Below, in pieces: positions 3,889 through 25,276 of a stretch of DNA of 32,513 nt. Origin of the DNA: an uncultured Candidatus Saccharibacteria bacterium (GTDB taxonomy: Bacteria > Patescibacteriota > Minisyncoccia > Portnoybacterales > UBA2143); the NCBI GenBank assembly GCA_964467815.1, contig CAYXST010000004.1, forward strand, positions 1-32,513, in the 5' to 3' direction. Numbering within the stretch: position 1 is the first letter of the stretch; each line of letters starts with the position of its first letter. The translations under genes and the position numbers were made by a program. The notes under the pieces were generated by a model, which had not been told where the DNA came from, searched no databases, and saw nothing but the letters and a program-made list of their open reading frames with translations.

Positions 3889-3920
3889 TTGACAAAGATT
3901 ATAAAGATAGTTATTATAAT
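3889..3920 (+). promoter_or_regulatory. putative sigma70-type promoter of the rSAM cassette
   Basis: TTGACA at 3889-3894. TATTAT follows after 17 nt, or TATAAT after 20 nt. Confidence 0.3.
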
Positions 3921-3987: not shown

Positions 3988-5361
3988 ATGAAAAAAGAGA
4001 GTAAATTCAAATTATCTTCAGATGTTCTTTTGAGGAGGAACGAGAAAGAAATCGCATATAGAACAATAGACGGGCAAGCGGCAATAATACATCTGAAGAA
4101 AAATACCTTTAATATCCTTAACGGGTTAGCTACGCGGATATGGGAATTGATAGACGGTCAAGTCTCGGCAGAGAAAATTACAGAAAGAATCTACCAAGAA
4201 TTTGATGCGGAGCGGTCGGTATTAAATCAAGATTGTTTGGATTTTGTTCAAGAAATGTTGGGAAGGGATTTGCTAAAAACTTCTTTCCCTGTAAAAGGCG
4301 TTTCTGAACAAAGACAACTACCCGAAACAGAAGGCGAGTTATTTGATGCTCTAAGGGAAAAATCAATCGCCAAACAAATTCCCCTTATTGTGCATTTTGA
4401 TTTAACCTATCAGTGCAACCTTAATTGTGTTCATTGCTATATAGTAAACAAGAATCGTTCTGTTCTCGGAGTTGAAGAGGTAAAAAATATCCTTGATCAG
4501 TTAGCGGAGGCAGGCGCGCTTTATCTAATATTGAGCGGCGGTGAAGTGCTGACGAGAAAAGATTTTATTGAAATTGCTCGATATGCCAGAAACCTCCATT
4601 TCGCTTTAAGGATACTAACCAACGGAACATTGATAGATAAAATGATGGCTGATGAAATCGCTTCTTTGAATCCTGAAATGGTGGCTATAAGTATCTATAG
4701 CACAAAGCCCCAAGTTCATGATAAGATAACAAAGGTATCGGGTTCTTTTCAAAAATCAATTTCCGCAGCGGAGACGTTAAGGAACAGGGATACACGATTG
4801 AAGATTTCTACGGTAATAATGAAAGATAATATGGGTGACTATCGCGATGTTTATGAATTTAGCAGACAATTAAAAGCGGCTTTTCAAGCGGATTACAGGA
4901 TTACCCCGAAGACTGATGGTAATAAAATTCCTTTGGCGGTTCACATTGACGAAGAATATCTTCCTAAGTTGTTAGCCGATCCTATTTTTACCGAAAAAAG
5001 CGAGCCAGAACCACAAGAGATTTATTCGGGAATCTTTAACACAATTCCTTGCGGAGCGGGTCATATGTCTTGCTATATCACTCCTTATGGCGATGTCTAT
5101 CCTTGTGTTCAGTTGCCGATAAATTGTGGCAATTTGAGAAAAACCAAATTCATCGAGATTTGGAAGAATTCCCCCAAGTTGTCGGAATTTCGTTCCATTA
5201 TAATTTCAGATTTAACTAGCTGTTCCCAATGCGAGTTCTTTAAATACTGTCGGATCTGCGTAGGGCTAAACTATGTTGAGGAAGGAAGCATGTTTATTCC
5301 ATCTAAAAGGGCCTGTCAGGAGGCCAGAATAATGAAAGAATTAGGCAGAGAAAGGAGGTGA
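3988..5361 (+). CDS. radical SAM/SPASM peptide maturase with N-terminal PqqD-like (RRE) domain, PqqE/MftC-like
   Basis: The N-terminal ~90 aa look PqqD-like (IDGQAAIIHLKKNTFNILNGLATRIWELIDG). CNLNCVHC is the CxxxCxxC motif. The SPASM Cys cluster is CGAGHMSCYITPYGDVYPC...CSQCEFFKYCRIC. ATG 3988 is preferred over TTG 3964 because AGGAGG lies 7 nt upstream. Confidence 0.8.
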   Translation: MKKESKFKLSSDVLLRRNEKEIAYRTIDGQAAIIHLKKNTFNILNGLATRIWELIDGQVSAEKITERIYQEFDAERSVLNQDCLDFVQEMLGRDLLKTSFPVKGVSEQRQLPETEGELFDALREKSIAKQIPLIVHFDLTYQCNLNCVHCYIVNKNRSVLGVEEVKNILDQLAEAGALYLILSGGEVLTRKDFIEIARYARNLHFALRILTNGTLIDKMMADEIASLNPEMVAISIYSTKPQVHDKITKVSGSFQKSISAAETLRNRDTRLKISTVIMKDNMGDYRDVYEFSRQLKAAFQADYRITPKTDGNKIPLAVHIDEEYLPKLLADPIFTEKSEPEPQEIYSGIFNTIPCGAGHMSCYITPYGDVYPCVQLPINCGNLRKTKFIEIWKNSPKLSEFRSIIISDLTSCSQCEFFKYCRICVGLNYVEEGSMFIPSKRACQEARIMKELGRERR

Positions 5362-5362
5362 A

Positions 5363-5494
5363 ATGATGAAAGCTAAGAACCTTAAAAAGTCCTATCAGAG
5401 GCCTGAGGTGAAGTCCGAAAAGGAGAGGCCTGAGAAGGACAACGGGCGTATTTATACCCCTGGGGCAGAATGCGGCCCTGCGCCTGGTCCTTAG
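5363..5494 (+). CDS. candidate RiPP precursor peptide, 43 aa (MMKAKNLKKSYQRPEVKSEKERPEKDNGRIYTPGAECGPAPGP)
   Basis: Hand-translated; too short for the ORF track. It starts 2 nt after the rSAM stop, with AGGAGGTG spanning that stop. A Lys/Glu-rich leader precedes a Gly/Pro-rich C-terminus with one Cys. A strong terminator follows. Confidence 0.55.
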   Translation: MMKAKNLKKSYQRPEVKSEKERPEKDNGRIYTPGAECGPAPGP

Positions 5495-5510
5495 ATAGGA
5501 CTAAATCAAG

Positions 5511-5558
5511 GTGGCGAGAATCAAAAAAGATAATCAACATTTTTCTCGCCACTTTTTT
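5511..5558 (+). terminator. rho-independent terminator
   Basis: GGTGGCGAGAA ... TTCTCGCCAC stem followed by T6. Confidence 0.65.
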
Positions 5559-5559
5559 A

Positions 5560-5588
5560 TTTACACACCTACTCTTTTGTTATATAAT
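5560..5588 (+). promoter_or_regulatory. sigma70-type promoter (TTTACA-N17-TATAAT)
   Basis: TTTACA at 5560-5565 and TATAAT at 5583-5588. The ATG at 5597 is only 8 nt past the -10 element and has no SD, so the transcript is near-leaderless. Confidence 0.5.
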
Positions 5589-5596
5589 CGCTTTAT

Positions 5597-6355
5597 ATGG
5601 CAAAGAAAAATGATAATTGGTGGAAAGATACATTTAATGAAATATATTTCTCATTTTGGGATCCTTCAGATCCGAAATCACAGAGTTGGACCAGAAAGGA
5701 ACTTAAATTGATTGATAGTCTAAATCTTAAAGAAAACGCAAAAGTATTGGATATACCTTGTGGTCAGGGAAGGCATAGCGTAGAACTTGCTAAAAAAGGA
5801 TTCCAGGTTACAGGCGTTGATTATTCGTCAATTGCTTTGAAAACTGCTAAAAAGTGGGCTAGGGGGAATAAGGTTTCGCCAGTTTTTATAAAACAAGATA
5901 TGCGTTTTCTCAAAATAAAAGAAAGATTTGATGCAATTGTGATGTTGGGTAATTCTTTTGGGTATTTTCCCAATATTGAGAACAAAAAAGTGATTATGGG
6001 TATATCAAAATTATTAAAAACTGGCGGTTTTTTTATCGTTCATCAGCTTAATCCCATAGAAATATTGAGACAATTTGGCAACAAAAGTAGTTTTGAGATT
6101 CCTGGCGGATACGTAAAAATGGAGGATATTTTTTTTGACCCATTTAATTTTGTTAAGGGGTCGCGTTGGGTAGTCGTTCGCGGCAAAAATAAAGAAATTT
6201 TAAATGTGAGACTTCGTATTTATACTTTTCCTGAAATCTCTTCTCTATTTTCTTCTCATAAATTAAATATTGTTAAAGTTTATGGTTCTTTTGATATGAA
6301 GTCATACCAATTTAATAGTCCGTCAATGATCACTATCGCGAAAAGAATAAGATAA
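5597..6355 (+). CDS. class I SAM-dependent methyltransferase
   Basis: Motif I VLDIPCGQGRHS, followed by VTGVDYS and IVMLGNSFGY. Confidence 0.75.
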   Translation: MAKKNDNWWKDTFNEIYFSFWDPSDPKSQSWTRKELKLIDSLNLKENAKVLDIPCGQGRHSVELAKKGFQVTGVDYSSIALKTAKKWARGNKVSPVFIKQDMRFLKIKERFDAIVMLGNSFGYFPNIENKKVIMGISKLLKTGGFFIVHQLNPIEILRQFGNKSSFEIPGGYVKMEDIFFDPFNFVKGSRWVVVRGKNKEILNVRLRIYTFPEISSLFSSHKLNIVKVYGSFDMKSYQFNSPSMITIAKRIR

Positions 6356-6386
6356 ATACTAATATTTAACTAGTAGTCCAAGCCAG

Positions 6387-6415
6387 AGCCCAGTTTCTAA
6401 AACTGGGCTTTTTTC
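6387..6415 (+). terminator. rho-independent terminator
   Basis: AGCCCAGTTT-CTAA-AACTGGGCT followed by T6. Confidence 0.75.
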
Positions 6416-6465
6416 TTTGATTTTTGTATGATAAGATAAAATTAGGAATAACATATATTAAAAAT

Positions 6466-7323
6466 ATGCGACAGAAAATCAATTCAACATTAATTTGTCC
6501 AAAATGCGGAGGTTTATTAGATTTAAAAATAGAGAAAAAATCCGGAGACAGAATAAATAAAGGAGATTTAAGCTGTGATAAATGCAATGCGAATTTTAAA
6601 ATAATAGATGATATTGTTCGTTTTAAGCCAATTGCAGAAAGGGGCTTGGATAAGAAAATAAAAAGAGTTCGGGAAATGTTTTTAGATCAGGAATTGAATA
6701 AAAAATGGGCAAAGCATTTTAGCAAAGAAGAGTTCGGCGTCTTAAAAGAAGAATGGAGATGGATGATTAATAAGCTTAATCTAAAAAACAGCCAGATTCA
6801 TTTAGATTGGGCAACTGGCACGGGGCGGTTTCTAAGAAATATACTTAATTTAGTTAAGGGAGAAATTATTGCCATAGAGAGCGACTATGCTACATGTGTG
6901 GCTCTTAGAGATTTTTTAAAAAGGATTAAAAAATATTCAAAAACAACGATTATTTGCGGCGATGCCCGAAATATGCCTTTGGTTGATAATTCGGTTGATA
7001 GTGTAAGCACATGGTCTGGTCTCGATGAGCCAAAGATTAGCAAAGCATTAGATGAATCTAAAAGAGTTCTGAAAAAAGATAGACCATTGGTTGTTAGTGG
7101 TTTATTTTTTGAAGATAATTCAAAAAGTTTGAAGATAGCACTCCGGGAAAAAATTGAATTCGCCAAAAAAGATAAAACTCAACAATATTTTAAGAAATTA
7201 GGATTTAAGGATATTGATTACAAAATATTCTTTGAAGGGAAATGGGCGAGTGGCAAAGATTTTCTGCCGAAAAAAGGAGATTATTATGCTTCATATGCTG
7301 TGGCAGGTAGGAAATCCGATTAG
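6466..7323 (+). CDS. Trm112-like zinc-ribbon fused to class I methyltransferase domain
   Basis: CPKCGG...CDKCNANFKIIDDIVRF is a Trm112/UPF0434-like ribbon. Methyltransferase motifs LDWATGTGRF and CGDARNMPLVDNSVD follow. ATG 6466 is preferred because the TTG at 6424 abuts the upstream terminator. Confidence 0.65.
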   Translation: MRQKINSTLICPKCGGLLDLKIEKKSGDRINKGDLSCDKCNANFKIIDDIVRFKPIAERGLDKKIKRVREMFLDQELNKKWAKHFSKEEFGVLKEEWRWMINKLNLKNSQIHLDWATGTGRFLRNILNLVKGEIIAIESDYATCVALRDFLKRIKKYSKTTIICGDARNMPLVDNSVDSVSTWSGLDEPKISKALDESKRVLKKDRPLVVSGLFFEDNSKSLKIALREKIEFAKKDKTQQYFKKLGFKDIDYKIFFEGKWASGKDFLPKKGDYYASYAVAGRKSD

Positions 7324-9428: not shown

Positions 9429-9584
9429 TTATTTCCTGTTTGCCCAGTGACCTTTGTCCCACGGGCCCTTATCCCAGGCTTTGCCCCAAGGTTTGTTTTT
9501 CTTTCCCATGGCTTGGATTGTTGCTTCTTTTTTGGCCTGAAGAAGAACTTTTGGGACAGCCCTTGAAGCGGCGGGATTTGACAT
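9429..9584 (-). CDS. candidate RiPP precursor peptide, 51 aa (MSNPAASRAVPKVLLQAKKEATIQAMGKKNKPWGKAWDKGPWDKGHWANRK)
   Basis: Hand-translated from the minus strand. AGGAGGTG lies 6 nt upstream of the ATG at 9584, and the ORF starts 39 nt downstream of the rSAM stop. The C-terminal core has the repeats WGK/WDK/WDK/WAN. Confidence 0.65.
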   Translation of the reverse strand: MSNPAASRAVPKVLLQAKKEATIQAMGKKNKPWGKAWDKGPWDKGHWANRK

Positions 9585-9623
9585 GGTCTTCACCTCCTTT
9601 TGTTTGGAATTTGCCGCCTTTAA

Positions 9624-10721
9624 TTATGCAAGACCATACGATTTTATCTTGCCTGCAATATGCCCAAAGTACCTTTTGAGGTTTTCACAAACTTCATCGA
9701 TTGGTTTGACGGAATCGAGTTGCACGTAGCAATCCTTGGCACATCCTCCTTTACATATAAAACCCCAATCGCATGTTTGGCAGTTTGCCCTTCTTTTTCT
9801 CAGTGTTTCTTGGAAACTTTTTAGGTGTGGATTAGATCTGACCAAGGCCGAATCATCTATTACGTTGCCAAAGCTTAGGGCATTTGTTTTAGGGAAAGAA
9901 TCGCAGCCGTAAATTGAACCATCGTGGTAAACAGTGACGAATTGATCGCATTCTCCCATATAGATGCATTCGCGCTTGTTGCCGCCGAGAATTAAGCTGA
10001 CAACGCTTTGAATGTCTCGGATTTCAACTTCTGGGTCGTCCAGCTCCAGCCAGAGATCAAAGATGGCAATCATGAAATCGGCGTATTGTCTTGGTGAAAT
10101 GGTGAGTGAAGATACATCGTTGCAATGACCGATATCTCTCACTCTGGCAAATTTCAACTTTTTTATGTCTTTCGTGATAAAAAAGTTGAAAATCTCTTTC
10201 GGGAATTGATGATTGATAGCGCTGACGCCGCAAATAATTCCGTTGAATATCCCAGCTCGCCTCAGCAAATCAATACCTTTCATAACATTGTCGTACGACC
10301 CTCTTTTATCAGGATAGTATCGGACCTGGTCATGAAAATCTTTAGGGCCATCAAGGCTTACGCCGACGAAAAAGTTGTGTTCAAGAAAGAATTCTGTCCA
10401 TTCGGGCGTAACTAGAGTAGCATTAGTTTGGACTGAATTCGTTATTCTTTTGCCTTTTTGTTCCCATGGTCGTTGATATTCTACAGCTTTACGGTAAAAA
10501 TCTATTCCAGCGAGCAAAGGTTCGCCTCCATGCCAGATAAACTCAATGTCGTCTTGATCGCGACAGAAAAAATCAGTCATTGCTTTCAAGGTTTTTGGAA
10601 GCATGCGATCTTGCCTAGTCGATTTTTCATGCCCGGAAACGTAGCAGTAGGAACAGGATAGATTGCATAAGCCATTGACTGGTTTGATAATCGGAGTGGA
10701 AATTGCTTGATAGGTTGCCAT
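9624..10721 (-). CDS. radical SAM/SPASM enzyme, anaerobic sulfatase-maturase-like (peptide-modifying candidate)
   Basis: CNLSCSYC (CxxxCxxC) near the N-terminus. C-terminal Cys clusters are CIYMGEC...YGCDSF...CQTCDWGFICKGGCAKDC. AGGAGGTG lies upstream of the ATG. Confidence 0.8.
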   Translation of the reverse strand: MATYQAISTPIIKPVNGLCNLSCSYCYVSGHEKSTRQDRMLPKTLKAMTDFFCRDQDDIEFIWHGGEPLLAGIDFYRKAVEYQRPWEQKGKRITNSVQTNATLVTPEWTEFFLEHNFFVGVSLDGPKDFHDQVRYYPDKRGSYDNVMKGIDLLRRAGIFNGIICGVSAINHQFPKEIFNFFITKDIKKLKFARVRDIGHCNDVSSLTISPRQYADFMIAIFDLWLELDDPEVEIRDIQSVVSLILGGNKRECIYMGECDQFVTVYHDGSIYGCDSFPKTNALSFGNVIDDSALVRSNPHLKSFQETLRKRRANCQTCDWGFICKGGCAKDCYVQLDSVKPIDEVCENLKRYFGHIAGKIKSYGLA

Positions 10722-13039: not shown

Positions 13040-13157
13040 ATTATTCACCAATCTGTCTTTGAAGATTAATTTGACATAATCGTCAGAAATGGTATCTTGT
13101 TTTTAGGCTCTTGAACAATTAAATATTTAATTGATTGGAATAACAAAGGAGGAAAAA

Positions 13158-13730
13158 ATGACAGTCAAGACAAAGATACAGGAGGCGATGGAGACGCCTC
13201 AAAGCAAGAAAGAGGTCGAAGCCGGCATTAGGCGAATAGGCGACTTATTATCCGAAATAAGTCAGATGGAAAACAATTTGAGTAAAACTGTTCAGCGGAT
13301 GACCGCGGCTGCCTCAAAAATGGCGAGTCATCGGGAACAGGAAATCGTCAAAATACAGCTGACCATTGAGGCATTTATGGCCAGTCATCGCCAAGAACTG
13401 ACCCAAGGCGGCAAAACCAAATCGATTAAGTTGCCTGCTGGCAGGACCGGCTGGCGTCTTTCTTCTTCTTCGGTGGAAATAATGGGCGAAGAAGAAGAAA
13501 TGGCAAAACAGCTCGAGAAGATGGGATTAAATGGACTAGTCAGGATTAAAAGGACCGTTGATAAAGAGGCGGTTAAAAAGAATCCTGGATTGGTCCAAGA
13601 GGTTAAAGGTCTCATTGTCAGAAAAGGCAAAGAGATTTTCTGGATAGAGCCGGCCAGGATTGGTTTGAAGACGGAGATTGCCGAAGACGGCCGACTGGTC
13701 AGACGCAAGTCAGGGGCAAAAAAAGATTAA
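13158..13730 (+). CDS. gam: phage Mu Gam-like host-nuclease inhibitor / DNA-end-binding protein
   Basis: An N-terminal coiled coil is followed by ELTQGGKTKSIKLPAGRTGWRLSSSSVEI...LGLNGLVRIKRTVDKEAVKK, matching the Mu Gam family pattern. AAGGAGG precedes ATG 13158. Confidence 0.6.
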   Translation: MTVKTKIQEAMETPQSKKEVEAGIRRIGDLLSEISQMENNLSKTVQRMTAAASKMASHREQEIVKIQLTIEAFMASHRQELTQGGKTKSIKLPAGRTGWRLSSSSVEIMGEEEEMAKQLEKMGLNGLVRIKRTVDKEAVKKNPGLVQEVKGLIVRKGKEIFWIEPARIGLKTEIAEDGRLVRRKSGAKKD

Positions 13731-13860: not shown

Positions 13861-14775
13861 TTAGTTGTCATCCAAAAATCCGGTAATAATCAGATTAATG
13901 GCTTCTTTTTCAGAAAGGCCTCTCGTTCTCAAATAATTTAGTTCTTCTTCGGAAATTTTGCCGATAGAGGCCTCATGAGTTAGCTGAGCTTTTTTGTTTT
14001 GGCAAACCAATTTGGGGGCTAAAGAAATGACTGAATCTGAACTGACTAATAAACCCTGACAATCTAGATGGCCCTTAGCCGGCGCTTGGGCAAAAATTTC
14101 GCTGACTGCTTCAATTCGGCTCTTTTGGCGGCCGACCAGTCTCAAATTAACTATTCCTTGGGAATTTTTTCCTTTAAGAAAAACGGTATCTTTTAAATTT
14201 ATCTTGGAGTTTAGGGCGTTAATGATAAATTTTAGATTAGCCGAAGCATTATCATCGTTATAGACCGCGGTTTTTAATTGAAGATTTTTGGGCGGGGCTA
14301 AATTTTTGTAATTATAGATAAGTTGGCTGTCCTTGCCCAGGATAAATTGATAATCAGGATTGACTAAATCTTTTTGGCCCCATTGATGGAAATGGTTATA
14401 TTCCAGACTGGCTTTTTCTTTAAGAATCAGTTTGCCTTGGGCCCGGTGAAGGCAGTCGAGATTAGAGCGGACGGCTCGGCAAACAACATTGGCTTTGGCT
14501 TTAATATTTTTTTCAATAACTAACAGGTTGTTTAGATGCTGGGAGACCTTTTTAGAGGCAATAGCAATGCAGGTGGTCAAAGAAAAAAGGGGTTGTTCTT
14601 TAACCCAGATGAAATATCCTTCTTTTGGTTTTTTCTGAAAATATTTTCTGGTCCAGTTTAATTTTTGCCAGGCCTGGGGGCTGGGCAAAATAATAACGCC
14701 TTTTCTTTCAGAAATATTTTCTACTTTATGGTCAACTTGCCCATAATGGGCATTTTTTGCATTTATCATAGCCAT
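13861..14775 (-). CDS. sufD: Fe-S cluster assembly scaffold protein, SufB/SufD family
   Basis: The C-terminal EEELNYLRTRGLSEKEAINLIITGFL is typical of SufB/D. Translationally overlapped with sufC. Confidence 0.7.
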   Translation of the reverse strand: MAMINAKNAHYGQVDHKVENISERKGVIILPSPQAWQKLNWTRKYFQKKPKEGYFIWVKEQPLFSLTTCIAIASKKVSQHLNNLLVIEKNIKAKANVVCRAVRSNLDCLHRAQGKLILKEKASLEYNHFHQWGQKDLVNPDYQFILGKDSQLIYNYKNLAPPKNLQLKTAVYNDDNASANLKFIINALNSKINLKDTVFLKGKNSQGIVNLRLVGRQKSRIEAVSEIFAQAPAKGHLDCQGLLVSSDSVISLAPKLVCQNKKAQLTHEASIGKISEEELNYLRTRGLSEKEAINLIITGFLDDN

Positions 14776-15460
14776 ATTTTTTAATTACCCGGAGGACTTT
14801 TTGATAGTTTTTTTCCCGGCAAATAATTTTTCCGTCAAGCATAACATTGGTCAATTGGGGTTTTAAAAAACGTAAAATAGTCCCCGAATGGGTAATCAAT
14901 AAAAGAGCAATCTTTTTATTAATCAATTCTTTTCTTATTAGGCGGGCCATTTTTTCCAACCTTTTAATATCTAAGCCGGAATCAATTTCGTCTAAAATGA
15001 CTAATTGGGGATTGAGAGATAAAACCTGAAGCAGTTCGGACATTTTTTTCTCGCCGCCGGAAAAATCTAAATTAACTTGGCGGCTTAAGAGATTGCCGTC
15101 AAAATCTAATTTTGACCCAAATTTCCTTTTTGGGCCTTTAAGGCCCAAATTGATTTTTTTCAATAATCGGTCTAGCCTAATTCCCTTGATAGCCGGCGGA
15201 TTCTGCCAAGCCAAAGCGATACCCAGCTTGGTTCTTTTTTCCGGAGGCAATTTAGTAATTTCTTTACCACGGAAAATAATTTTTCCCCGGCTGATTTGGT
15301 ATTTGGGGTTGCCGGCAATGACTTGAACGAAAGTGCTTTTCCCGGAAGCGTTGGGACCCAAAAGAGCTTGGCATTCTCCTTTTTTAATCTTTAGATTAAC
15401 GCCCTTCAATATTTCTTGGCCGTTGCCTTTGACTTTTAAATTTTTGATTTCTAAAAACAT
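14732..15460 (-). CDS. sufC: Fe-S cluster assembly ATPase SufC
   Basis: Walker A GPNASGKST, signature FSGGEKK, Walker B LVILDEIDSGLD and H-loop ITHS. Confidence 0.85.
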   Translation of the reverse strand: MFLEIKNLKVKGNGQEILKGVNLKIKKGECQALLGPNASGKSTFVQVIAGNPKYQISRGKIIFRGKEITKLPPEKRTKLGIALAWQNPPAIKGIRLDRLLKKINLGLKGPKRKFGSKLDFDGNLLSRQVNLDFSGGEKKMSELLQVLSLNPQLVILDEIDSGLDIKRLEKMARLIRKELINKKIALLLITHSGTILRFLKPQLTNVMLDGKIICREKNYQKVLRVIKKYGYDKCKKCPLWAS

Positions 15461-18814: not shown

Positions 18815-18854
18815 CCTCATCTTTTTTGTCAATAAAAGAAAGATGAGGTATAAT
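18815..18854 (+). promoter_or_regulatory. promoter TTGTCA-N17-TATAAT embedded in a 10-bp inverted repeat
   Basis: -35 at 18826-18831 and -10 at 18849-18854. The arms CCTCATCTTT (18815-18824) and AAAGATGAGG (18839-18848) bracket the -35 element and spacer. Confidence 0.55.
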
Positions 18855-18872
18855 AAAAGAGAAGAAATTACT

Positions 18873-19199
18873 ATGCCTGCTTTCAACGGAACAGGTCCTC
18901 AAGGCCAAGGCTCACGGACTGGCCGCGGTTTAGGTTATTGCCGGCCCACCGGGCAGACGAATCAACCTGGTTATAGGCGCGGTTTAGGCCAAGGTTGGTT
19001 CGGCCGAAGATTGGGTCGTGGCTTTGGTTTTGGCCGCGGCTGGGGATACCCATATGGAGGTTATCCGGATAGACCCGATTATCCCTATGAACCAACGGCC
19101 AAAGAAGAAAAAGAAATACTGGCTGAAGAGCTTCAGGGGTTAAAAGAAGAAACAAAGAGAACGGAAACCCGTCTTGAGGAACTGAAAAATAAAAAATAA
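18873..19199 (+). CDS. DUF5320-family protein (Gly/Arg-rich, C-terminal coiled coil)
   Basis: The N-terminus MPAFNGTGPQGQGSRTGRGLGYC is the family hallmark. ATG 18873 is chosen because the promoter -10 lies inside the longer ORF. Confidence 0.65.
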   Translation: MPAFNGTGPQGQGSRTGRGLGYCRPTGQTNQPGYRRGLGQGWFGRRLGRGFGFGRGWGYPYGGYPDRPDYPYEPTAKEEKEILAEELQGLKEETKRTETRLEELKNKK

Positions 19200-19225
19200 A
19201 ATAATAGGGATAAGGAGAAAAAAAC

Positions 19226-19453
19226 ATGCCATTTAGAGATGGAACCGGTCTTTCTGGCCAGGCGCCAGGCGCCGGCCAAGGCTTCAGGCAGGGTCAGGGC
19301 CGCGGTCGTCAAACAGAAGGTTTCGGTTTAGGACCGGACGGAGAATGTCTCTGTCCAAAATGCGGAACAAAAGTCCCTCATCAGAGAGGAGTGCCTTGTT
19401 ACGAACAAAAATGCCCTAAATGCGGCAGTTTGATGACTCGGACTGGGCAATAA
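19226..19453 (+). CDS. DUF5320-like N-terminus fused to a 4-Cys zinc ribbon
   Basis: MPFRDGTGLSGQ..., then CLCPKCGTKVPHQRGVPCYEQKCPKCGSLMTR. GGAGA SD lies upstream. Confidence 0.6.
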   Translation: MPFRDGTGLSGQAPGAGQGFRQGQGRGRQTEGFGLGPDGECLCPKCGTKVPHQRGVPCYEQKCPKCGSLMTRTGQ

Positions 19454-19465
19454 CTTTAAATTAAT

Positions 19466-19891
19466 ATGAAGATTTGTTTAAGCGCCAGCTTACCTAAGTT
19501 TGATTCGCCGATAGACCCGCGTTTTGGCCGGGCGCCTTATTTTTTAATTACTGACGAAAAAGGAGAAAAATTGGAAGTGATTAAGAATACCGGAGTCGAA
19601 GCAATGGGCGGAGCCGGAGTAACCGCGGCTCAATTAGTTGTTTCAGCCGGTACCCAATTGATCATTACCGGTAATTTAGGACCACGGGCCTTCCAGGTTC
19701 TTCAAAATTCGGGGATAAAAATAATTATTGGCGTTTCCGGAATTTCAGCCAAAGAGGCTTTGGAAAAATATCAAAAAGGAGAACTAAAAGAGATGGCTCG
19801 ACCAAGCGTGCCTGGCCATTTTGGAATAGGTCAAAGATTCGGCGGCAGTCGAGGCGGCTTTGGTGGCGGTCATCGTTCGAGCCATCGATAG
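19466..19891 (+). CDS. NifB/NifX-like (dinitrogenase FeMo-cofactor-binding fold) domain protein with Gly/Arg-rich tail
   Basis: IDPRFGRAPYFLITD...GGAGVTAAQLVVSAGTQLIITGNLGPRAFQVLQNSGIKI, with the tail GGSRGGFGGGHRSSHR. Confidence 0.7.
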   Translation: MKICLSASLPKFDSPIDPRFGRAPYFLITDEKGEKLEVIKNTGVEAMGGAGVTAAQLVVSAGTQLIITGNLGPRAFQVLQNSGIKIIIGVSGISAKEALEKYQKGELKEMARPSVPGHFGIGQRFGGSRGGFGGGHRSSHR

Positions 19892-19923
19892 ATATTACGA
19901 GAACGGTTCTCGGACTTATTTAT

Positions 19924-21162
19924 ATGACCGAAGTATTTAAAAAAGGCCAAAAGGCCACGATGATTTCAGCGTTGTTAACCATTCTTTTGGCCGTAATTAA
20001 GGGGATAGTCGGCTTGGTTTCAGGAAGCGTTGTTTTACTAGCCGATGCGGTTCATAGCGCGGCCGACTCTCTTTCCAGTTTTGCCGCTTGGTTTGGTTTA
20101 AAAATTTCTCAAAAAAAACCGACCGAGAAGTTTTCCTACGGTTTTTATAAAGCGGAGAATTTAACCGCACTTTTGATTTCCGGACTTATTCTTTTAGCCG
20201 GTTTTTTAATTGTTCAAGAAAGCCTTTCCAAGTTTTTTGTAGAATCAAAATTGAATATTCCTTTAGTGGCTATCGGAGCGGCTGTTTTGGACGCCATCGT
20301 TATGTTTTCAATTGGAACCTATGAAGTGAAAGTAGGCCGGAAGATAAACTCTCAAAGCTTGATGGCCGATGGCCGGGAATCGCGCCTTCATTTACTTTCT
20401 TCTTCTTTGGTTTTAATCGGTTTATTCTCCAGCTGGTTAAAAATTCCTTATTTAGAAGGAATTATGGGGATGGCCATTTCTCTTTTTATTTTTCAGGCCG
20501 GCTTAAGTTCTGTCAAAGATTCAATTTTTGCCTTGATGGATGTTTCTCCGGAAAAAGAAAAAGAAGAAAAAGTTAAGAAAATTTTAAATGGTATTTCCGG
20601 AATCAGAGGATTTGAAAACTTAAAATTAAGAAAATCAGGCCCATTTATTTTCGGAGAGGTTAAGATAAAAATCGGCAAAGCTATCAATGTTAAAAAAGCT
20701 TATGAAATCTCGGGAAATATCGAGAAAGAAATTAAGAAAGGGGTAAGGTCAATTGATTCATTTACGGTAATGGTTCTGCCTTATGAAGTCGAAAAACAAA
20801 AAATATGCATTCCTATCGGCAAAGACAAAGGAATCAACTCTTTAATGTCCAATCATTTTGGCCGGGCTAATAAATTTGTTTTTATCAATTTAGATAAGGG
20901 AGAAATTAAAGATTATTACATTAAAGAAAATCCTTATCAAGAAAGAGAAATCAGAGCCGGTTTGAATACGGCTTTATTCGTTATCAGGGAAAAGGTTGAT
21001 TCGGTCATTACCCAAGAAATGGGACCGATTTCTCTTCATACTTTAAGAGATAATATCGTTGATGTTTATTCAAATACAGACGGTCAGGTCAAGGAAATCG
21101 TCAAAAAATTTATTCAGAAGAAACTTAAACCGTTAAAAGAAGCGACTAAAGAAAAGATATGA
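19924..21162 (+). CDS. cation diffusion facilitator (CDF) transporter fused to a C-terminal NifX-like domain
   Basis: The CDF transmembrane core has SVVLLADAVHSAADSLSS and a cytoplasmic domain. The C-terminal ~110 aa (MSNHFGRANKFVFINL...VDSVITQEMGPISLHTLRDNIV) resemble the preceding NifX-like protein. Confidence 0.7.
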   Translation: MTEVFKKGQKATMISALLTILLAVIKGIVGLVSGSVVLLADAVHSAADSLSSFAAWFGLKISQKKPTEKFSYGFYKAENLTALLISGLILLAGFLIVQESLSKFFVESKLNIPLVAIGAAVLDAIVMFSIGTYEVKVGRKINSQSLMADGRESRLHLLSSSLVLIGLFSSWLKIPYLEGIMGMAISLFIFQAGLSSVKDSIFALMDVSPEKEKEEKVKKILNGISGIRGFENLKLRKSGPFIFGEVKIKIGKAINVKKAYEISGNIEKEIKKGVRSIDSFTVMVLPYEVEKQKICIPIGKDKGINSLMSNHFGRANKFVFINLDKGEIKDYYIKENPYQEREIRAGLNTALFVIREKVDSVITQEMGPISLHTLRDNIVDVYSNTDGQVKEIVKKFIQKKLKPLKEATKEKI

Positions 21163-21992
21163 TGACCATAGGCATCACCGGCGGCAAGGGAGGAACGGGC
21201 AAATCTACGGTGGCCATCCTTTTAGCCAATCAATATTTTCAAGAAGGCCAGAAGGTTATTTTGGTTGACTCTGATATAGAATGTCCTAACGACTATTTGC
21301 TTTTGGGCCAGGTTCTGGGAAAGCCGGTGGAAAAAACTTATACCCGTTTTCCTAAATTAGACCGGAGTAAATGCCGGAAATGCGGCGTTTGTGTCAGAAA
21401 TTGCCGGAGCAACGCTATTTTTCAGGCGCCGGGCCAATATCCGATATTCATTAAGGATTTATGCTCCGGTTGCGGGGCTTGCTGGTTAAGCTGTCCCGAG
21501 CAAGCTATCCAGCCGATTAAAGAAGAAACCGGCCGGATTTTTGTTAACCGCCTCAAGGAAAATTACTGGCTAATTACCGGCTTAGCCAAGGCTGGTTTGG
21601 AAGAAACCGGTCCCATTGTCACTCAAACGAAAAAATTTGCCTTAAAGTTCGCTCAAGAGAAAAAAGCCGATATTGTTTTGTTAGATACGGCCGCCGGGAC
21701 CCATTGCCCGGTTATCTCGGCTCTTCTAGACGTTGATTTGGCCAAGGCGGTTACTGAACCAACTCCTATGGGAGCAGTCGATTTGGGTTTAATTTTAGAT
21801 TTGTGCCAGAAAATTAAAGTGCCGGCGGAAGTGATTTTGAATCAAGCTGATTTGGGAGATAAAAAAAGAATTGAGGCGGTTGTTCAAAAATATCAAACCA
21901 AAATTATTCAGGAAATTCCTTATTCCAAGAAAGTTGTTCAGGCCTATTCTCGGGGGAAATTATTAAATTTTAAATTCAAATGGGGAAAATAA
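21159..21992 (+). CDS. MinD/ParA-type P-loop ATPase with inserted 2x[4Fe-4S] ferredoxin domain
   Basis: GGKGGTGKST, CRKCGVCVRNC and CSGCGACWLSC. Overlaps the upstream gene by 4 nt. Confidence 0.75.
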   Translation: MMTIGITGGKGGTGKSTVAILLANQYFQEGQKVILVDSDIECPNDYLLLGQVLGKPVEKTYTRFPKLDRSKCRKCGVCVRNCRSNAIFQAPGQYPIFIKDLCSGCGACWLSCPEQAIQPIKEETGRIFVNRLKENYWLITGLAKAGLEETGPIVTQTKKFALKFAQEKKADIVLLDTAAGTHCPVISALLDVDLAKAVTEPTPMGAVDLGLILDLCQKIKVPAEVILNQADLGDKKRIEAVVQKYQTKIIQEIPYSKKVVQAYSRGKLLNFKFKWGK

Positions 21993-22819
21993 GTAGTTCA
22001 ACAGGACTCACTATAAAAATTATTATTTTTGGGTTAATTTTATCTGTCTTCGGATTTGTCTTTTTTTTGAGTCCGGCCTTGGCGGTTGAAGAAGATTGTT
22101 ATCACTGCCAGAGCATTAGTCCGAATTTTTTACAGGAATTGCCCGATGATTTTACTTTAATTAAAATTGTTTCTTTAGCCGCCGTTGATGCGGTTAATCC
22201 CTGCACCTTGGCTGTTCTCGGTTTAATGCTGGTAACTATTTTAACTTATAACCCAGCCAAGAAAAGAAATGTCATTTTGGCCGGTCTAGCCTTTGTCTTT
22301 TCTGTTTTTGTGATGTATTTCTTTTACGGTTTGATTATTGTCGGTTCTTTCCAGCTGTTAAACGCTTTAAAGGTAATCCAGTTTTGGCTTTATAAAATTG
22401 TCGCTTTGGGCGCCATCGTTTTGGGCTTTTTGAAAATCAGGGACTTTTTTCGGGCTAAAGCGGTCTGTCGGGTTAATCCCGGAGTTGAGCGAATTCTTTT
22501 AAAAATAACCAGCCCAAAAGGAGCTTTCCTGGCTGGTGCTTTAGTAACTATATTTTTACTGCCTTGTACCATCGGCCCCTATATTATCTGCGGCGGAATC
22601 TTGTGCCAGCTGGGCATATTAAAATCCCTGCCTTGGCTGTTGCTTTACAATTTGATATTCGTTTTACCGATGCTGGCCGTTGTTTTCATTGTTTATTTTG
22701 GCTTAAGAAAAATTGAAGATATCCATAGCTGGCAGGCCAGAAATATTAAGTATCTTCATCTAGTATCCGGCATAATTATCCTGCTTTTGGGCCTGGCAAT
22801 GGTCTCTGGACTGCTTTAG
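21980..22819 (+). CDS. CcdA/DsbD-family thiol-disulfide transfer membrane protein
   Basis: Multi-pass membrane protein with conserved transmembrane cysteines (VNPCTLAV and LLPCTIGP). An extracytoplasmic CYHC motif is also present. Confidence 0.6.
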   Translation: MGKISSSTGLTIKIIIFGLILSVFGFVFFLSPALAVEEDCYHCQSISPNFLQELPDDFTLIKIVSLAAVDAVNPCTLAVLGLMLVTILTYNPAKKRNVILAGLAFVFSVFVMYFFYGLIIVGSFQLLNALKVIQFWLYKIVALGAIVLGFLKIRDFFRAKAVCRVNPGVERILLKITSPKGAFLAGALVTIFLLPCTIGPYIICGGILCQLGILKSLPWLLLYNLIFVLPMLAVVFIVYFGLRKIEDIHSWQARNIKYLHLVSGIIILLLGLAMVSGLL

Positions 22820-22932
22820 TTTTTTTAAAAAAGATTGAATTTTATGCAACTTTATATTAGAAAAACTTCTTTGATTAATCCAAATAGGTTTACGAATGGT
22901 TTAGTCGGAATGCGTTTAGAATTATCAAATTT

Positions 22933-23511
22933 TTGTATAATGATTTAAAAAAAGATGATTTGTTTTTACATAAGAAGTATCAAAGGCAATTAGAAGCGAG
23001 GGAAATTTATAAAGAGTCTCTGCGGGGGTCGAAGAAATATAGAGAAGTAGAAAAAAGATATAAATTACCAATGCAGAAACTATTACAAAAGCTATTCATT
23101 GAAGATAGATTCACTGGAGAAGAAATTGCTAAAAAATTAGGGATTCATTCTTCCTCGGTTTATAGATGGCTAGAGAAAACAGGAGTGAAATTTCCTGAGA
23201 AAAAGATTAAGAAAATTATAGTTAAGGAGTGCCCGGTCTGTCATGGGCAATTTGAACAGCAGAAAGGGCGTTTTAAAAAATATTGTTCTGAATATTGCAG
23301 AATTCAGGCAAGACAGACTGGAAAACTTGTAAAGTGTATCGTTTGCGGGAAGAAAGTATATAGGCCAGGATGGTGGTTTAGAATCAATAACACGCCGATT
23401 TGCTCTAAGGGATGTTTAAGAGAATGGCGGCGTATGCGTGTAGGGAAGAATACAATTCATCGTTCTAAGGAAACGGTCCAATTTGTGTCTTTTAAAAGAG
23501 GAGTAATTTAA
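22933..23511 (+). CDS. hypothetical HTH + Cys-rich zinc-ribbon protein (start uncertain)
   Basis: HTH-like EEIAKKLGIHSSSVYRWLEK, then CPVCHG...YCSEYC...CIVCGK...CSKGC. The track start is TTG. An extended -10 (TGTATAAT, 22934-22941) suggests the true start may be the first in-frame ATG at 23071. Confidence 0.45.
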   Translation: MYNDLKKDDLFLHKKYQRQLEAREIYKESLRGSKKYREVEKRYKLPMQKLLQKLFIEDRFTGEEIAKKLGIHSSSVYRWLEKTGVKFPEKKIKKIIVKECPVCHGQFEQQKGRFKKYCSEYCRIQARQTGKLVKCIVCGKKVYRPGWWFRINNTPICSKGCLREWRRMRVGKNTIHRSKETVQFVSFKRGVI

Positions 23512-24101
23512 TGAACAAATTGTCAATTATTGATAAGAAACTTAGGGGAATAAGGGATGAAATTGTTGATTGCCGGAAATGTCCTCTTCACAAAAACAGA
23601 ACTTTGCCGGTTATCGGACAGGGAAGCCATCAGGCGGAAATTATGCTAGTTTCAGAGGCGCCAGGATATTGGGAAGATCAAAAAGGAGAGCCTTTTGTTG
23701 GAGCTGCAGGAGGAGTATTGAATGAACTTTTGGATTTCGTTGGAATTAAAAGAGAAGAAGTATATATTTGTAATATTCTTAAATGCCGGCCCCCTCAAAA
23801 CCGCAACCCGCAAAAAGATGAGATTGCTGCTTGCGTTCCTTACTTAGAAAAACAGATTAGAATTATTCGACCAAAGCTTATTGGTTCGCTAGGCAATTAC
23901 GCGACCGCTTATCTTTTGGAAAAATTCGGTTTATCTGATAAAATTCAAGGCATCAGCAAGATACACGGCCAGGTTTTTGAGGCCAGGGCTGATTTCGGGC
24001 CAATTAAAATTATTCCTTTATATCATCCAGCCGTAGCTGTTTACAATGAAAGGATGAAAGAAACTCTTAAAAATGATTTCCAAATCCTCAATGAAAGATA
24101 A
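23511..24101 (+). CDS. udg: uracil-DNA glycosylase, family 4
   Basis: CRKCPLHKNRT...VSEAPGYWEDQKGEPFVGAAGGVLNELL...CNILKCRPP...HPA. Confidence 0.85.
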   Translation: MNKLSIIDKKLRGIRDEIVDCRKCPLHKNRTLPVIGQGSHQAEIMLVSEAPGYWEDQKGEPFVGAAGGVLNELLDFVGIKREEVYICNILKCRPPQNRNPQKDEIAACVPYLEKQIRIIRPKLIGSLGNYATAYLLEKFGLSDKIQGISKIHGQVFEARADFGPIKIIPLYHPAVAVYNERMKETLKNDFQILNER

Positions 24102-24975
24102 ACAATTTAAATTAGTCATTTCTTCAGGCAAAGGGGGCGTCGGCAAATCAATGCTGGCTTCGGCTTTAGCGATGCTTTTTGCTAAAAAGGAAAAAATCGT
24201 CGCGGTTGACGCCGACGTTGACGCGCCTAATTTAGCTATTTGGCTTAACGAAGTTTCTGATGAAAATGTTCAATTTTCCCAGAAAATTTCCAATTCCTTT
24301 AAAGCGGTTATTGACGAAAATAAATGCAATGGCTGCGGCCAGTGTGTTGAGAAATGTCCTTTTGGGGCTATTAAAATTAAGAACGGCCGGGCTAAAATAA
24401 ATCCATTTCTTTGCGAAGGTTGCGGCGTTTGCCAGATTATCTGTCCTCAAAAGGCGGTTGATTTAAAACCGGTTGAGAATGGCCAAATCAAAGTAATTAA
24501 GACTAATTATGGTTTTCCCTTAGTGATCGGTCAGTTATTCCCCGGCGAAACGGGTTCTGGCAAAATAGTCACTGAGATAAAAAAACAGGCCGAAGAAATC
24601 AGTCAGGCCGAATTAATGCTTATTGACTCGGCGCCAGGAACCGGCTGTCCGGTGATTGCTTCTTTGCGGGATGCTCATTTAGCCGTTTTGATTACTGAAC
24701 CGACTCTCTCCGGTTTCTCTGATTTGAAAAGAATTTTAGAATTGGTCGAACATTTTCAAATTCCTTTTAAAATAGTCGTTAATAAATGGGATATCAACCG
24801 TCCGCTGACTAAAAAGATGGAAAAAGAATTCAAGGATAATTTTTTAGGTAAAATATCTTATGACCAAGGCATTTTTAAGGCCATCGCCAACCTAAAGCCA
24901 ATTTTGAAAACAAAACTTAAGGCCAAAAAAGAGATTAAGGAAATATTTAAACAATTATATGCCCAGACCGTTTAA
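24091..24975 (+). CDS. MinD/ParA-type P-loop ATPase with 2x[4Fe-4S] ferredoxin domain (paralog of 21159..21992)
   Basis: SGKGGVGKSM, CNGCGQCVEKC and CEGCGVCQIIC. ATG 24091 (MKDKQFKLVISSGKGG) is preferred over 24073. Confidence 0.75.
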   Translation: MKDKQFKLVISSGKGGVGKSMLASALAMLFAKKEKIVAVDADVDAPNLAIWLNEVSDENVQFSQKISNSFKAVIDENKCNGCGQCVEKCPFGAIKIKNGRAKINPFLCEGCGVCQIICPQKAVDLKPVENGQIKVIKTNYGFPLVIGQLFPGETGSGKIVTEIKKQAEEISQAELMLIDSAPGTGCPVIASLRDAHLAVLITEPTLSGFSDLKRILELVEHFQIPFKIVVNKWDINRPLTKKMEKEFKDNFLGKISYDQGIFKAIANLKPILKTKLKAKKEIKEIFKQLYAQTV

Positions 24976-25276
24976 AAAAAGAGCAATCGGCTTTGACCCT
25001 CGGGTGACATATTTTAAACCGCGGGCGGTGCCCCTGTCTATTTTAGAAGAAATTGACTTAGGCATGGACGAATTGGAAGCTTTGCGGCTTTGCGAACTAA
25101 AAAAATTAGAGCAGGCCGAAGCGGCCAAAAGAATGAAAATCTCTCAAAGCACTTTACAAAGGATTTTGAGTTCAGCCCATCAAAAAATTGCCGAGGCCTT
25201 AACCGAGGGAAAAGCGATTAGAATTAGTAAAAATAATGGGAAACAAAGATTTAGGAGCAAAGCTCCTAACTTTTAG
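24959..25276 (+). CDS. DUF134/UPF0251 family predicted DNA-binding protein
   Basis: MPRPFKKRAIGFDPRVTYFKP...DELEALRLCELKKLEQAEAAKRMKISQSTLQRIL matches the family hallmark. Confidence 0.75.
   Translation: MPRPFKKRAIGFDPRVTYFKPRAVPLSILEEIDLGMDELEALRLCELKKLEQAEAAKRMKISQSTLQRILSSAHQKIAEALTEGKAIRISKNNGKQRFRSKAPNF

Follow-up and report, generated by a model that had tools for sequence, protein, structure and literature searches.

Several described systems come close to the locus reported here, which lies on a 32,513-nucleotide (nt) stretch from an uncultured Candidatus Saccharibacteria bacterium (GenBank assembly GCA_964467815.1, contig CAYXST010000004.1; the whole stretch is called the window) and encodes a radical S-adenosylmethionine (rSAM) enzyme followed directly by a short peptide. 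The CteB/thermocellin, SkfB and AlbA/subtilosin systems share with it an enzyme in which a recognition element (RRE) for ribosomally synthesized and post-translationally modified peptides (RiPPs) is followed by an rSAM domain and then a SPASM or twitch domain, together with an adjacent precursor that has a leader and Cys in its core. The SCIFF/ScfB system of Clostridia resembles it in pairing a short, near-invariant, lineage-wide precursor with one rSAM/SPASM enzyme and few or no other dedicated genes. The mycofactocin and pyrroloquinoline quinone (PQQ) pathways combine an rSAM/SPASM enzyme and a PqqD-type RRE with a small, highly conserved peptide and no exporter, and their standalone MftB and PqqD proteins have a counterpart in the separate PqqD gene of some members of the window enzyme's family. 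The streptide enzyme SuiB (substrate SuiA) and TigE are its best fold matches, RRE domain included. Prochlorosins and cyanobactins are made from one conserved leader that serves interchangeable cores.

We read the window locus, with a probability of roughly 0.6, as a functional RiPP-type cassette with a swapped core, belonging to an undescribed and mostly Patescibacterial family. Full-text literature searches returned only generic surveys of biosynthetic gene clusters and no description of the cassette.

The precursor peptide and its core

The enzyme gene (3988..5361, forward strand; ATG 3988, TGA 5359-5361) encodes a 457-amino-acid (aa) RRE(PqqD)-fused radical SAM/SPASM protein, predicted to be a peptide maturase, and is preceded by a putative sigma-70-like promoter, TTGACA-17-TATTAT (3889..3917, forward strand; 11/12 consensus match). 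Its stop codon is embedded in AGGAGGTGA, and a Shine-Dalgarno sequence for the peptide, AGGAGG, is read directly from the sequence at 5353..5358 (forward strand), inside the last codons and stop of the enzyme gene; this overlap would couple translation of the precursor to the rSAM stop, and the AGGAGGTGA/TAA junction between the two genes is also present in orthologous loci. The short open reading frame (ORF) that follows (5366..5494, forward strand; stop TAG 5492-5494) encodes (M)MKAKNLKKSYQRPEVKSEKERPEKDNGRIYTPGAECGPAPGP, with 42 aa from ATG 5366 or 43 aa from ATG 5363. ATG 5366 is the likelier start, because it lies 7 nt from the ribosome-binding site (RBS), M-K-x-K opens the orthologous peptides and P0121, the public gene call, has 42 aa. 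The product divides into a putative leader, MKAKNLKKSYQRPEVKSEKERPEKD (5366-5440, forward strand), and a C-terminal core, NGRIYTPGAECGPAPGP (5441-5491, forward strand), called the variant core below. The first-pass annotation of this DNA had placed the enzyme at 3988-5361 and the short ORF at 5363/5366-5494, and both positions stand; it had called the peptide unannotated, and this was not wholly right, since the JGI and ENA gene callers had already called the ORF. Assembly artefact as the source of the ORF was rejected, its DNA being identical in three independent assemblies.

An intrinsic terminator follows the ORF at 5508..5561 (forward strand; 13-bp stem 5508-5520/5543-5555, 22-nt loop, U6). 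Folding bears out the earlier call of a strong terminator at this point (free energy, dG, -19.4 kcal/mol; z = -5.9; 0/200 shuffles fold as well), and the structure is also kept in a related locus, L062. Next come a promoter-like site, TTTACA-17-TATAAT (5560..5588, forward strand; 11/12 consensus match), whose TATAAT region is conserved in loci L062, L063, L069 and L072, and the gene for MT252, a class I SAM-dependent methyltransferase (5597..6355, forward strand; Pfam Methyltransf_25, _31 and _11). Downstream of MT252, a terminator scan and folding located a second hairpin, AGAGCCCAGTTTCTAAAACTGGGCTTT plus a T-run (6385..6420, forward strand; dG -18.8 kcal/mol, z = -4.2), homologous to the terminator that stands behind the precursor in L016, L001, L063 and L069. 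The last gene, MT285 (6466..7323, forward strand; mechanical ORF start TTG 6424), joins a Trm112-like zinc ribbon (CPKCG...CDKC) to a class I methyltransferase (Pfam Methyltransf_25 and _11), with an NCBIfam Trm112_arch match of 31.9 bits over residues 1-52 that stays below the cut-off.

About 60 related loci (labelled L001 and so on) were retrieved for comparison; scanning of genome contigs with a single protein gave no match, and an alignment-based query worked. Relatives of the enzyme numbered 1,373 at E <= 1e-20 among 8,000 candidates scored, and the named ones come mostly from Paceibacterota, Parcubacteria or Patescibacteria. The order enzyme, peptide, zinc-ribbon methyltransferase is common to some 50 related loci, Patescibacterial for the most part, with the short ORF directly after the enzyme as the earlier pairing of the two genes had anticipated, and this recurrence marks the ORF as more than a chance reading frame; in essentially all loci with enough sequence it lies 2-8 nt past the enzyme stop, behind AGGAGG. 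These loci yield 36 distinct precursors of 39-56 aa with a common leader, Y-x-[KR]-P-x-[VIL]-[KR]-[ST]-E-[KR]-E. A nearly invariant core, N-C-P-[TS]-T-[NS]-x-K-Y-C-G-x-P-[YF]-[ST]-P-K-K-G(S), is carried by 28 of the 36 and is called canonical here. The canonical order after the peptide is a terminator and then the gene for a zinc-ribbon class I methyltransferase of about 285 aa, represented in the window by MT285; by tblastn, 46 of the fetched loci have an MT285 homologue past the precursor (35-79% identity). No protease, transporter or other gene was conserved around the cassette in the neighbourhoods of the fetched loci, and NCBIfam holds no curated model for canonical or variant precursors. 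Judged by these genes the cassette is of RiPP type, as the first-pass annotation had proposed; it had missed the third gene, MT285, and the extra MT252.

Against this background the window precursor stands apart at a sharply defined point. Loci L016 and L017 encode enzymes with 80% identity to that of the window and share the leader of the window precursor, MKAKNLKKSYQRPEVKSEKERPE, after which they run ASFNCPTTNVKYCGQAYSPKKG where the window runs KDNGRIYTPGAECGPAPGP. Homology to L016, L017, L001 and L046 (blastn) stops at 5433/5434 and resumes at 6387, so that about 950 bp of the window (5434..6386, forward strand), holding the variant core, terminator, promoter and MT252, stand where close relatives have roughly 98 bp of canonical core and terminator. 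The canonical terminator survives in the window as the relic downstream of MT252. Over 5288-5434 the identity to L016 climbs to 93-96%, from about 80% elsewhere, and beyond this stretch it collapses; the rise marks a tract of recombination with its end at the leader/core junction. Only 20/60 bases of the window core DNA are identical to the canonical core, about the level of chance, so the core was replaced, not mutated. Derivation of the tail from a frameshifted or point-mutated canonical core was rejected on the same figure, the other frames also lacking NCPTT... The single-Cys core that had been singled out from the window alone thus holds, with the correction that it belongs to a minority class swapped in by recombination at the leader/core junction.

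The variant tail is not confined to the window. A word-index search with the window peptide returned only itself, which reflects a limit of gene calling and not absence, because the L016 peptide, with 22 shared leader residues, was also missed. An exhaustive phmmer search over 1.84 billion representatives found one further copy (P0223, locus L072), and L062 was reached through close relatives of MT252, so that the tail is present in three lineages. The L062 peptide reads MKGKNSRKPYQKPEVKSEKERSNKS-NGYIYTPGTECGPAPGP and that of L072 MKDKKSKKPYQKPEIKSEKKKTKM-NGRIYTPGAECGPGPGN, and behind each come a terminator, a TATAAT box and a gene of the MT252 family. The tails are 15/17 identical between lineages, while the leaders differ at about 11/24 positions. 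Pairs of cores differ at 8-13 of 51 bases (17 codons), mostly synonymously, and the ratio of nonsynonymous to synonymous differences per site (pN/pS) is 0.22 for the window and L062, 0.14 for the window and L072, and 0.30 for L062 and L072. If the same number of substitutions fell at random, the probability that as many residues would survive and no stop arise (randomisation p) is 0.006, 0.00015 and 0.002, respectively. The stop position is conserved (TAG, TAA and TAA), the other frames are closed or unconserved, and leader pN/pS among the variant peptides is 0.20-0.33, with the RRE-type leader motif under selection in all three. By these measures the variant core forms a second core class under selection. 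Its origin was also sought beside the more divergent relatives of MT252 (L065-L068 and L071), and no similar peptide lay upstream of them.

These comparisons bear on two ways of denying the tail a role as a substrate. Insertion of a methyltransferase could have destroyed the canonical core, leaving NGRIYTPGAECGPAPGP as meaningless read-through and the precursor as a pseudogene; the abrupt break in homology at the leader/core junction, the chance-level match to the canonical core and the word-index search that gave no other copy of the tail are what such an accident would leave. It is nevertheless scarcely credible, and effectively refuted, because low pN/pS (0.14-0.30, p down to 0.00015), a conserved stop and closed or unconserved other frames are not expected of junk, because two further lineages carry the tail at 15/17 identity despite leaders that differ at about 11/24 positions, and because the three sequences, differing at 8-13/51 core bases, are not near-identical products of recent transfer. 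Alternatively, the short ORF could be a regulatory leader peptide, with the 5508-5561 hairpin attenuating transcription of the methyltransferase gene, and no substrate of the enzyme at all. The order of ORF, strong terminator and downstream gene is superficially attenuator-like, but the amino-acid sequence is strongly conserved in leader and core, a good promoter-like site lies between terminator and MT252, the fold offers no alternative antiterminator pairing, an Rfam search of the cassette region gave no match, coupling ties the ORF to the stop codon of an RRE-bearing enzyme, and several different cores share this one leader. We consider attenuation highly improbable.

Class and fold of the enzyme

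Pfam places a PqqD domain at residues 33-96 (about nt 4084-4275, forward strand; 43.5 bits), a Radical_SAM domain at residues 139-291 (rSAM core about nt 4402-4860, forward strand; 80 bits) and a SPASM domain at residues 355-416 (SPASM Cys set about nt 5050-5316, forward strand; 47.7 bits). The sequence CNLNCVHC at residues 143-150 (C143-x3-C147-x2-C150) is the CxxxCxxC radical SAM motif. Eight Cys follow in the C-terminal part; across 30 homologues C355, C373, C380, C415, C421, C424 and C443 never vary and C412 hardly does, and the set fits two predicted auxiliary Fe-S clusters. In phmmer comparisons with the PDB, the lasso-peptide RRE protein TbiB1 matched enzyme residues 25-97, and the nearest structures were SkfB (best, E = 1.8e-11), CteB, PqqE and SuiB. 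An AlphaFold2 model built from 23 homologues (predicted local distance difference test score, pLDDT, 82.7; predicted template-modelling score, pTM, 0.87) has a three-strand, three-helix winged-helix pattern in its N-terminal domain. The top Foldseek matches of this model were TigE, SuiB, CteB and SkfB, followed by PqqE and anSME, with a best E of about 7e-16 and template-modelling (TM) scores of 0.5-0.6 (streptide SuiB and TigE), RRE domain included. By domain content and predicted fold the enzyme is an RRE-bearing rSAM/SPASM peptide maturase; a PqqD-like RRE, CNLNCVHC, a full SPASM Cys set and a maturase-type architecture had each been named in the first-pass annotation, and the Pfam, TbiB1 and Foldseek matches agree with it on all four. 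The fold class leaves the chemistry undecided, because the structural neighbours make C-S links, C-C links and cyclopropanes.

None of the NCBIfam equivalog models reached its cut-off against the enzyme. AhbD scored 158 bits (cut-off 500), MftC (TIGR03962) came second at 143 bits (cut-off 265), NirJ2 was also among the top matches with 140 bits, and StsB (104 bits, cut-off 625), PqqE (TIGR02109; 94.7 bits, cut-off 381) and AlbA (92 bits, cut-off 850) scored lower; PapB and ScfB (SCIFF model TIGR03974) were not among the best 25 families. With every curated model far below its cut-off, the earlier view that the system is not SCIFF, mycofactocin or PQQ holds, and so does the statement that PQQ and mycofactocin accessory genes are missing, since none (mftD/E/F, pqqB/C) is present in the window. 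The two top scores, AhbD and NirJ2, and the label 'AdoMet-dependent heme synthase' that JGI gives to some relatives would suit a heme-type cofactor enzyme beside which the short ORF is incidental. These scores, however, are far below the 500-bit cut-offs and come from a match that spans the generic rSAM core only; the enzyme has an RRE domain, a coupled and conserved peptide gene and RiPP maturases as structural neighbours, and its surroundings hold a peptide and methyltransferases with no heme-pathway genes nearby. A heme-type role has a negligible probability in our view, and the heme-enzyme, read-through and attenuator readings together take up only a small share.

Variation in the family and the mobile module

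Within the family, PqqD is encoded as a separate upstream ORF of about 100 aa in L011, L040, L048 and L052 and was not detected in L012, L041 and L043. The RRE is thus fused, split off or undetectable within one family whose precursor leader does not change; in L048 an HPr-kinase-like P-loop ORF is found upstream as well. A third core class is found on this leader in L045 (2303-2446), L048 (1866-1979) and L049 (1008-1166), with tails ending ...EELFEATVLACGKTDMCLTSRLS and ...EKLFETAALQCATKGSAAACSRPFKT and two Cys. No MT285 homologue occurs within the short downstream sequence covered in these three loci, which weakly suggests that the methyltransferase tracks the core class. On inspection their contigs seemed richer in GC, and PqqD is split off in them. 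A deviant tail in L052 was considered as a further core class and set aside as probable decay, its rSAM gene lacking the SPASM Cys motif and no methyltransferase following. In L005 (5662-6889), L006 and L009, from a metagenome-assembled genome of Thermodesulfobacteriota, a canonical precursor is followed by a 48-aa ORF and a 335-aa rSAM protein, and these two ORFs replace the zinc-ribbon methyltransferase; the 335-aa protein aligns to enzyme residues 25-313 and so has the RRE and rSAM parts and no SPASM.

All three variant peptides have an MT252-family gene beside them, that of L062 being 87% and that of L072 67% identical to the window copy, and pN/pS for MT252 is 0.21-0.34. The variant peptides ride on divergent rSAM backbones, 54-72% identical to each other: the window enzyme is 80-82% identical to canonical-core enzymes, 72% to that of L062 and 54% to that of L072, and the L072 enzyme is itself about 80% identical to a canonical group whose cores end 'PKKGS'. 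In L072 the junction falls at the rSAM stop and peptide RBS, with 785-1746 matching L026, L023 and L030 and 1734-2742 matching window 5349-6356 at 72% nt identity. Behind MT252 in L069 lies an rSAM 3' fragment of about 40 codons, followed by the full canonical precursor with the canonical terminator and by MT285. L063 and L064 have about 40 N-terminal rSAM codons fused in frame to an MT252 homologue and, between their two methyltransferase genes, an 86-bp rSAM 3' fragment with a relic of the canonical core, ...TTNVKYCGQAYSPKKG. The fused gene (L063 1436-2350, and L064) is a chimeric ORF made by deletion (P0125, 304 aa) that includes part of the PqqD domain.

The simplest history for these arrangements is that resident cassettes took up, by recombination ahead of the canonical precursor, a module of precursor or core, terminator, promoter and MT252, after which lineages would have deleted different redundant parts; the window would have dropped the canonical core and kept an intact enzyme. 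MT252-family genes (67-70% identical) also stand beside unrelated rSAM/SPASM genes in L065 (1489-4786) and L066 and in L067/L068 (2586-4756); L065 further has a Cys-rich 46-aa ORF, MDAVQKEVFSEIVLFGPQDEEEGGFVTTADCGCFACDGNPCVKVID, and an MA-type peptidase, and L067 a YcaO gene upstream. Assignment of MT252 to the daptide-type RiPP methyltransferases was rejected, since NF041820 scores 48 bits against a cut-off of 175, a generic class I similarity only.

The window enzyme itself shows no damage. All 62 residues that are invariant across the 30 homologues are present, the ratio of nonsynonymous to synonymous substitution rates (dN/dS) is 0.11-0.13 against L016 and L001 (L016 against L001, 0.126), and dN to the outgroup is not raised (0.252 vs 0.262-0.267). 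By these values it is intact and under purifying selection; relaxed selection was looked for and not seen, dN/dS being like that of canonical pairs.

Several observations weigh against a working cassette. A stretch of 107 nt in the SPASM region (window 5061-5167) is missing from the L062 enzyme gene, and the L072 gene is without the N-terminal 140 or so residues, including the RRE and all else before CxxxCxxC, so that the adjacent rSAM gene is damaged in two of the three variant-peptide loci; the first-pass annotation had missed these broken copies beside the same variant peptide in two sister loci. In L063/L064 and L069 the rSAM gene is almost wholly deleted and both methyltransferases persist, and the variant clade is clearly in flux as judged from these loci. 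MT252 relatives are also found with no rSAM gene nearby (L071), and adjacency is therefore all that ties MT252 to the peptide, with a strong terminator and a separate promoter standing between the two. The variant-core sequences number three, so their statistics rest on 17 codons, and the chemistry proposed below is something we infer throughout.

Much of this would also fit a maturase that has been orphaned, in which the variant peptide and MT252 form the functional pair, giving for example a methylated or unmodified small peptide, and the rSAM gene, once the canonical core was gone, became a leftover, intact in the window only through the recency of that loss. The damage or loss of the rSAM gene in L062, L072, L063/L064 and L069 while the peptide, the methyltransferases or both persist speaks for it, as does an adjacency of peptide and MT252 kept across 67-87% identity between methyltransferases and on different rSAM backbones. 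It is opposed by the lack of relaxation in the window enzyme (dN/dS 0.11-0.13, rate not raised, all invariant residues), by selection on an RRE-type leader motif in all three variant peptides, and by a peptide that always lies 2-5 nt after the rSAM stop of this enzyme family. The L062 and L072 remnants are otherwise open, at pN/pS of 0.12-0.16, so their lesions are recent or assembly errors and the genes were functional until recently or lie on misassembled contigs. Breakage is also not specific to the variant, similar lesions occurring in about 5 of roughly 35 canonical lineages. An orphaned maturase therefore seems unlikely to us, if by some way the most serious competitor of the working, core-swapped cassette. 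As a whole the cassette is evidently dispensable and often decaying, judging from these lesions, and the window copy bears no sign of decay.

Proposed working and relation to known systems

In a functional cassette, transcription from about 3889-3917 would give a bicistronic rSAM-precursor message, ending mostly at the 5508-5561 hairpin. The leader (...Y-Q-R-P-E-V-K-S-E-K-E...) would dock on the N-terminal PqqD/RRE domain, the rSAM/SPASM domain would abstract a hydrogen in the core and form one crosslink, and one or both of the neighbouring methyltransferases would then methylate the product. No residue other than Cys is common to all intact core classes (...YCG... in the canonical, ...ECG... 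in the window and ...ACG... in the L045/L049 class), so a Cys-derived thioether or other radical crosslink is the most likely product; for the window core we would guess first at one thioether formed by Cys and, failing that, at a link through Tyr. The first-pass annotation had named a thioether from C37 or a Tyr/Glu link, both as speculation, and speculative they remain. Adjacency suggests that MT285, with the canonical core, and MT252, with the variant core, are core-specific tailoring enzymes. The product may act inside the cell, because no protease or exporter is conserved nearby.

A broader proposal is offered tentatively and, taken whole, we think it somewhat improbable: that RRE-rSAM/SPASM enzyme, precursor and zinc-ribbon methyltransferase, with no protease or exporter, form a phylum-wide and previously undescribed system of Patescibacteria making a near-invariant, cofactor- or signal-like product, that this system has been re-programmed by a mobile precursor and methyltransferase module recombining at the leader/core or RBS junction, and that the window holds a working re-programmed cassette making a singly crosslinked, methylated, Gly/Pro-rich peptide.

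Bacteria of the candidate phyla radiation (CPR) have tiny genomes with very few recognisable biosynthetic clusters. A three-gene unit with a near-invariant peptide, kept across many small-genome lineages, is for that reason probably important to CPR biology; host interaction, signalling or a small cofactor are possible roles of the canonical product. Of interest are the cassette's broad distribution in Patescibacteria, a zinc-ribbon methyltransferase as obligate partner and a natural core swap with a co-travelling methyltransferase. The last amounts to a natural experiment, in which the same leader and enzyme are found with a wholly different, selected core that brings its own methyltransferase; it illustrates how RiPP specificity may be rewired by recombination and supplies two substrates with which to probe enzyme tolerance. 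The cassette is a compact target for heterologous expression, of moderate practical value given a well-known enzyme class and a conjectural chemistry.

Elsewhere in the window, a second rSAM/SPASM gene (9429-10721, reverse strand; 365 aa) matches anSME at 280 bits and DynA at 264 bits, both below cut-off. Directly after it on its strand, behind an RBS, lies a short ORF, MSNPAASRAVPKVLLQAKKEATIQAMGKKNKPWGKAWDKGPWDKGHWANRK, with recurring W-x-K motifs that point to a precursor of the Trp/Lys-crosslinked (darobactin/dynobactin/WgkB-like) or cyclophane type; presumably the first-pass annotation had counted this locus as its first cassette. A phage Mu Gam-like gene lies at 13131-13730, SufBD and SufC at 13861-15460 (reverse strand), and a metal/Fe-S cluster at 18843-25276 with DUF5320, a NifX/FeMo-cofactor-like protein, a cation-efflux transporter fused to an FeMo-cofactor-like domain and two MinD/Mrp-like ATPases with 4Fe-4S motifs.

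Set beside the described systems, the cassette by all indications of its sequence works like other RRE-dependent rSAM/SPASM maturase systems but is outside every named curated family. SkfB is the best PDB sequence match and, with CteB, ranks among the top Foldseek matches, yet identity to CteB, SkfB and AlbA is only 17-19% and the StsB and AlbA models score far below cut-off; sactipeptides have several core Cys where the window core has one, and the window cassette, unlike sactipeptide-type systems, has no protease or ABC exporter and has an obligate zinc-ribbon methyltransferase. From SCIFF it differs in a peptide with no six-Cys motif, in another leader and in its occurrence in Patescibacteria and not Clostridia. 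MftC is the second-best NCBIfam match and PqqE a structural neighbour, but the cores end PGP or PKKG with no C-terminal GVY as in mycofactocin and no MftD/E/F genes in the window, there is no E-x3-Y motif in the core and no pqqB or pqqC in the window as for PQQ, and several core classes occur per leader, unlike cofactor precursors. SuiB and TigE, at 17-18% identity, act on features with no counterpart in the window core, a Lys-Trp pair in streptide and, reportedly, TIGSVS repeats for TigE. Prochlorosins and cyanobactins offer the nearest parallel to the swap, in that one leader-enzyme pair goes with several unrelated cores and breakpoints fall at leader/core or gene boundaries; here the swapped module differs in carrying its own methyltransferase and in having displaced the resident core rather than joined it.

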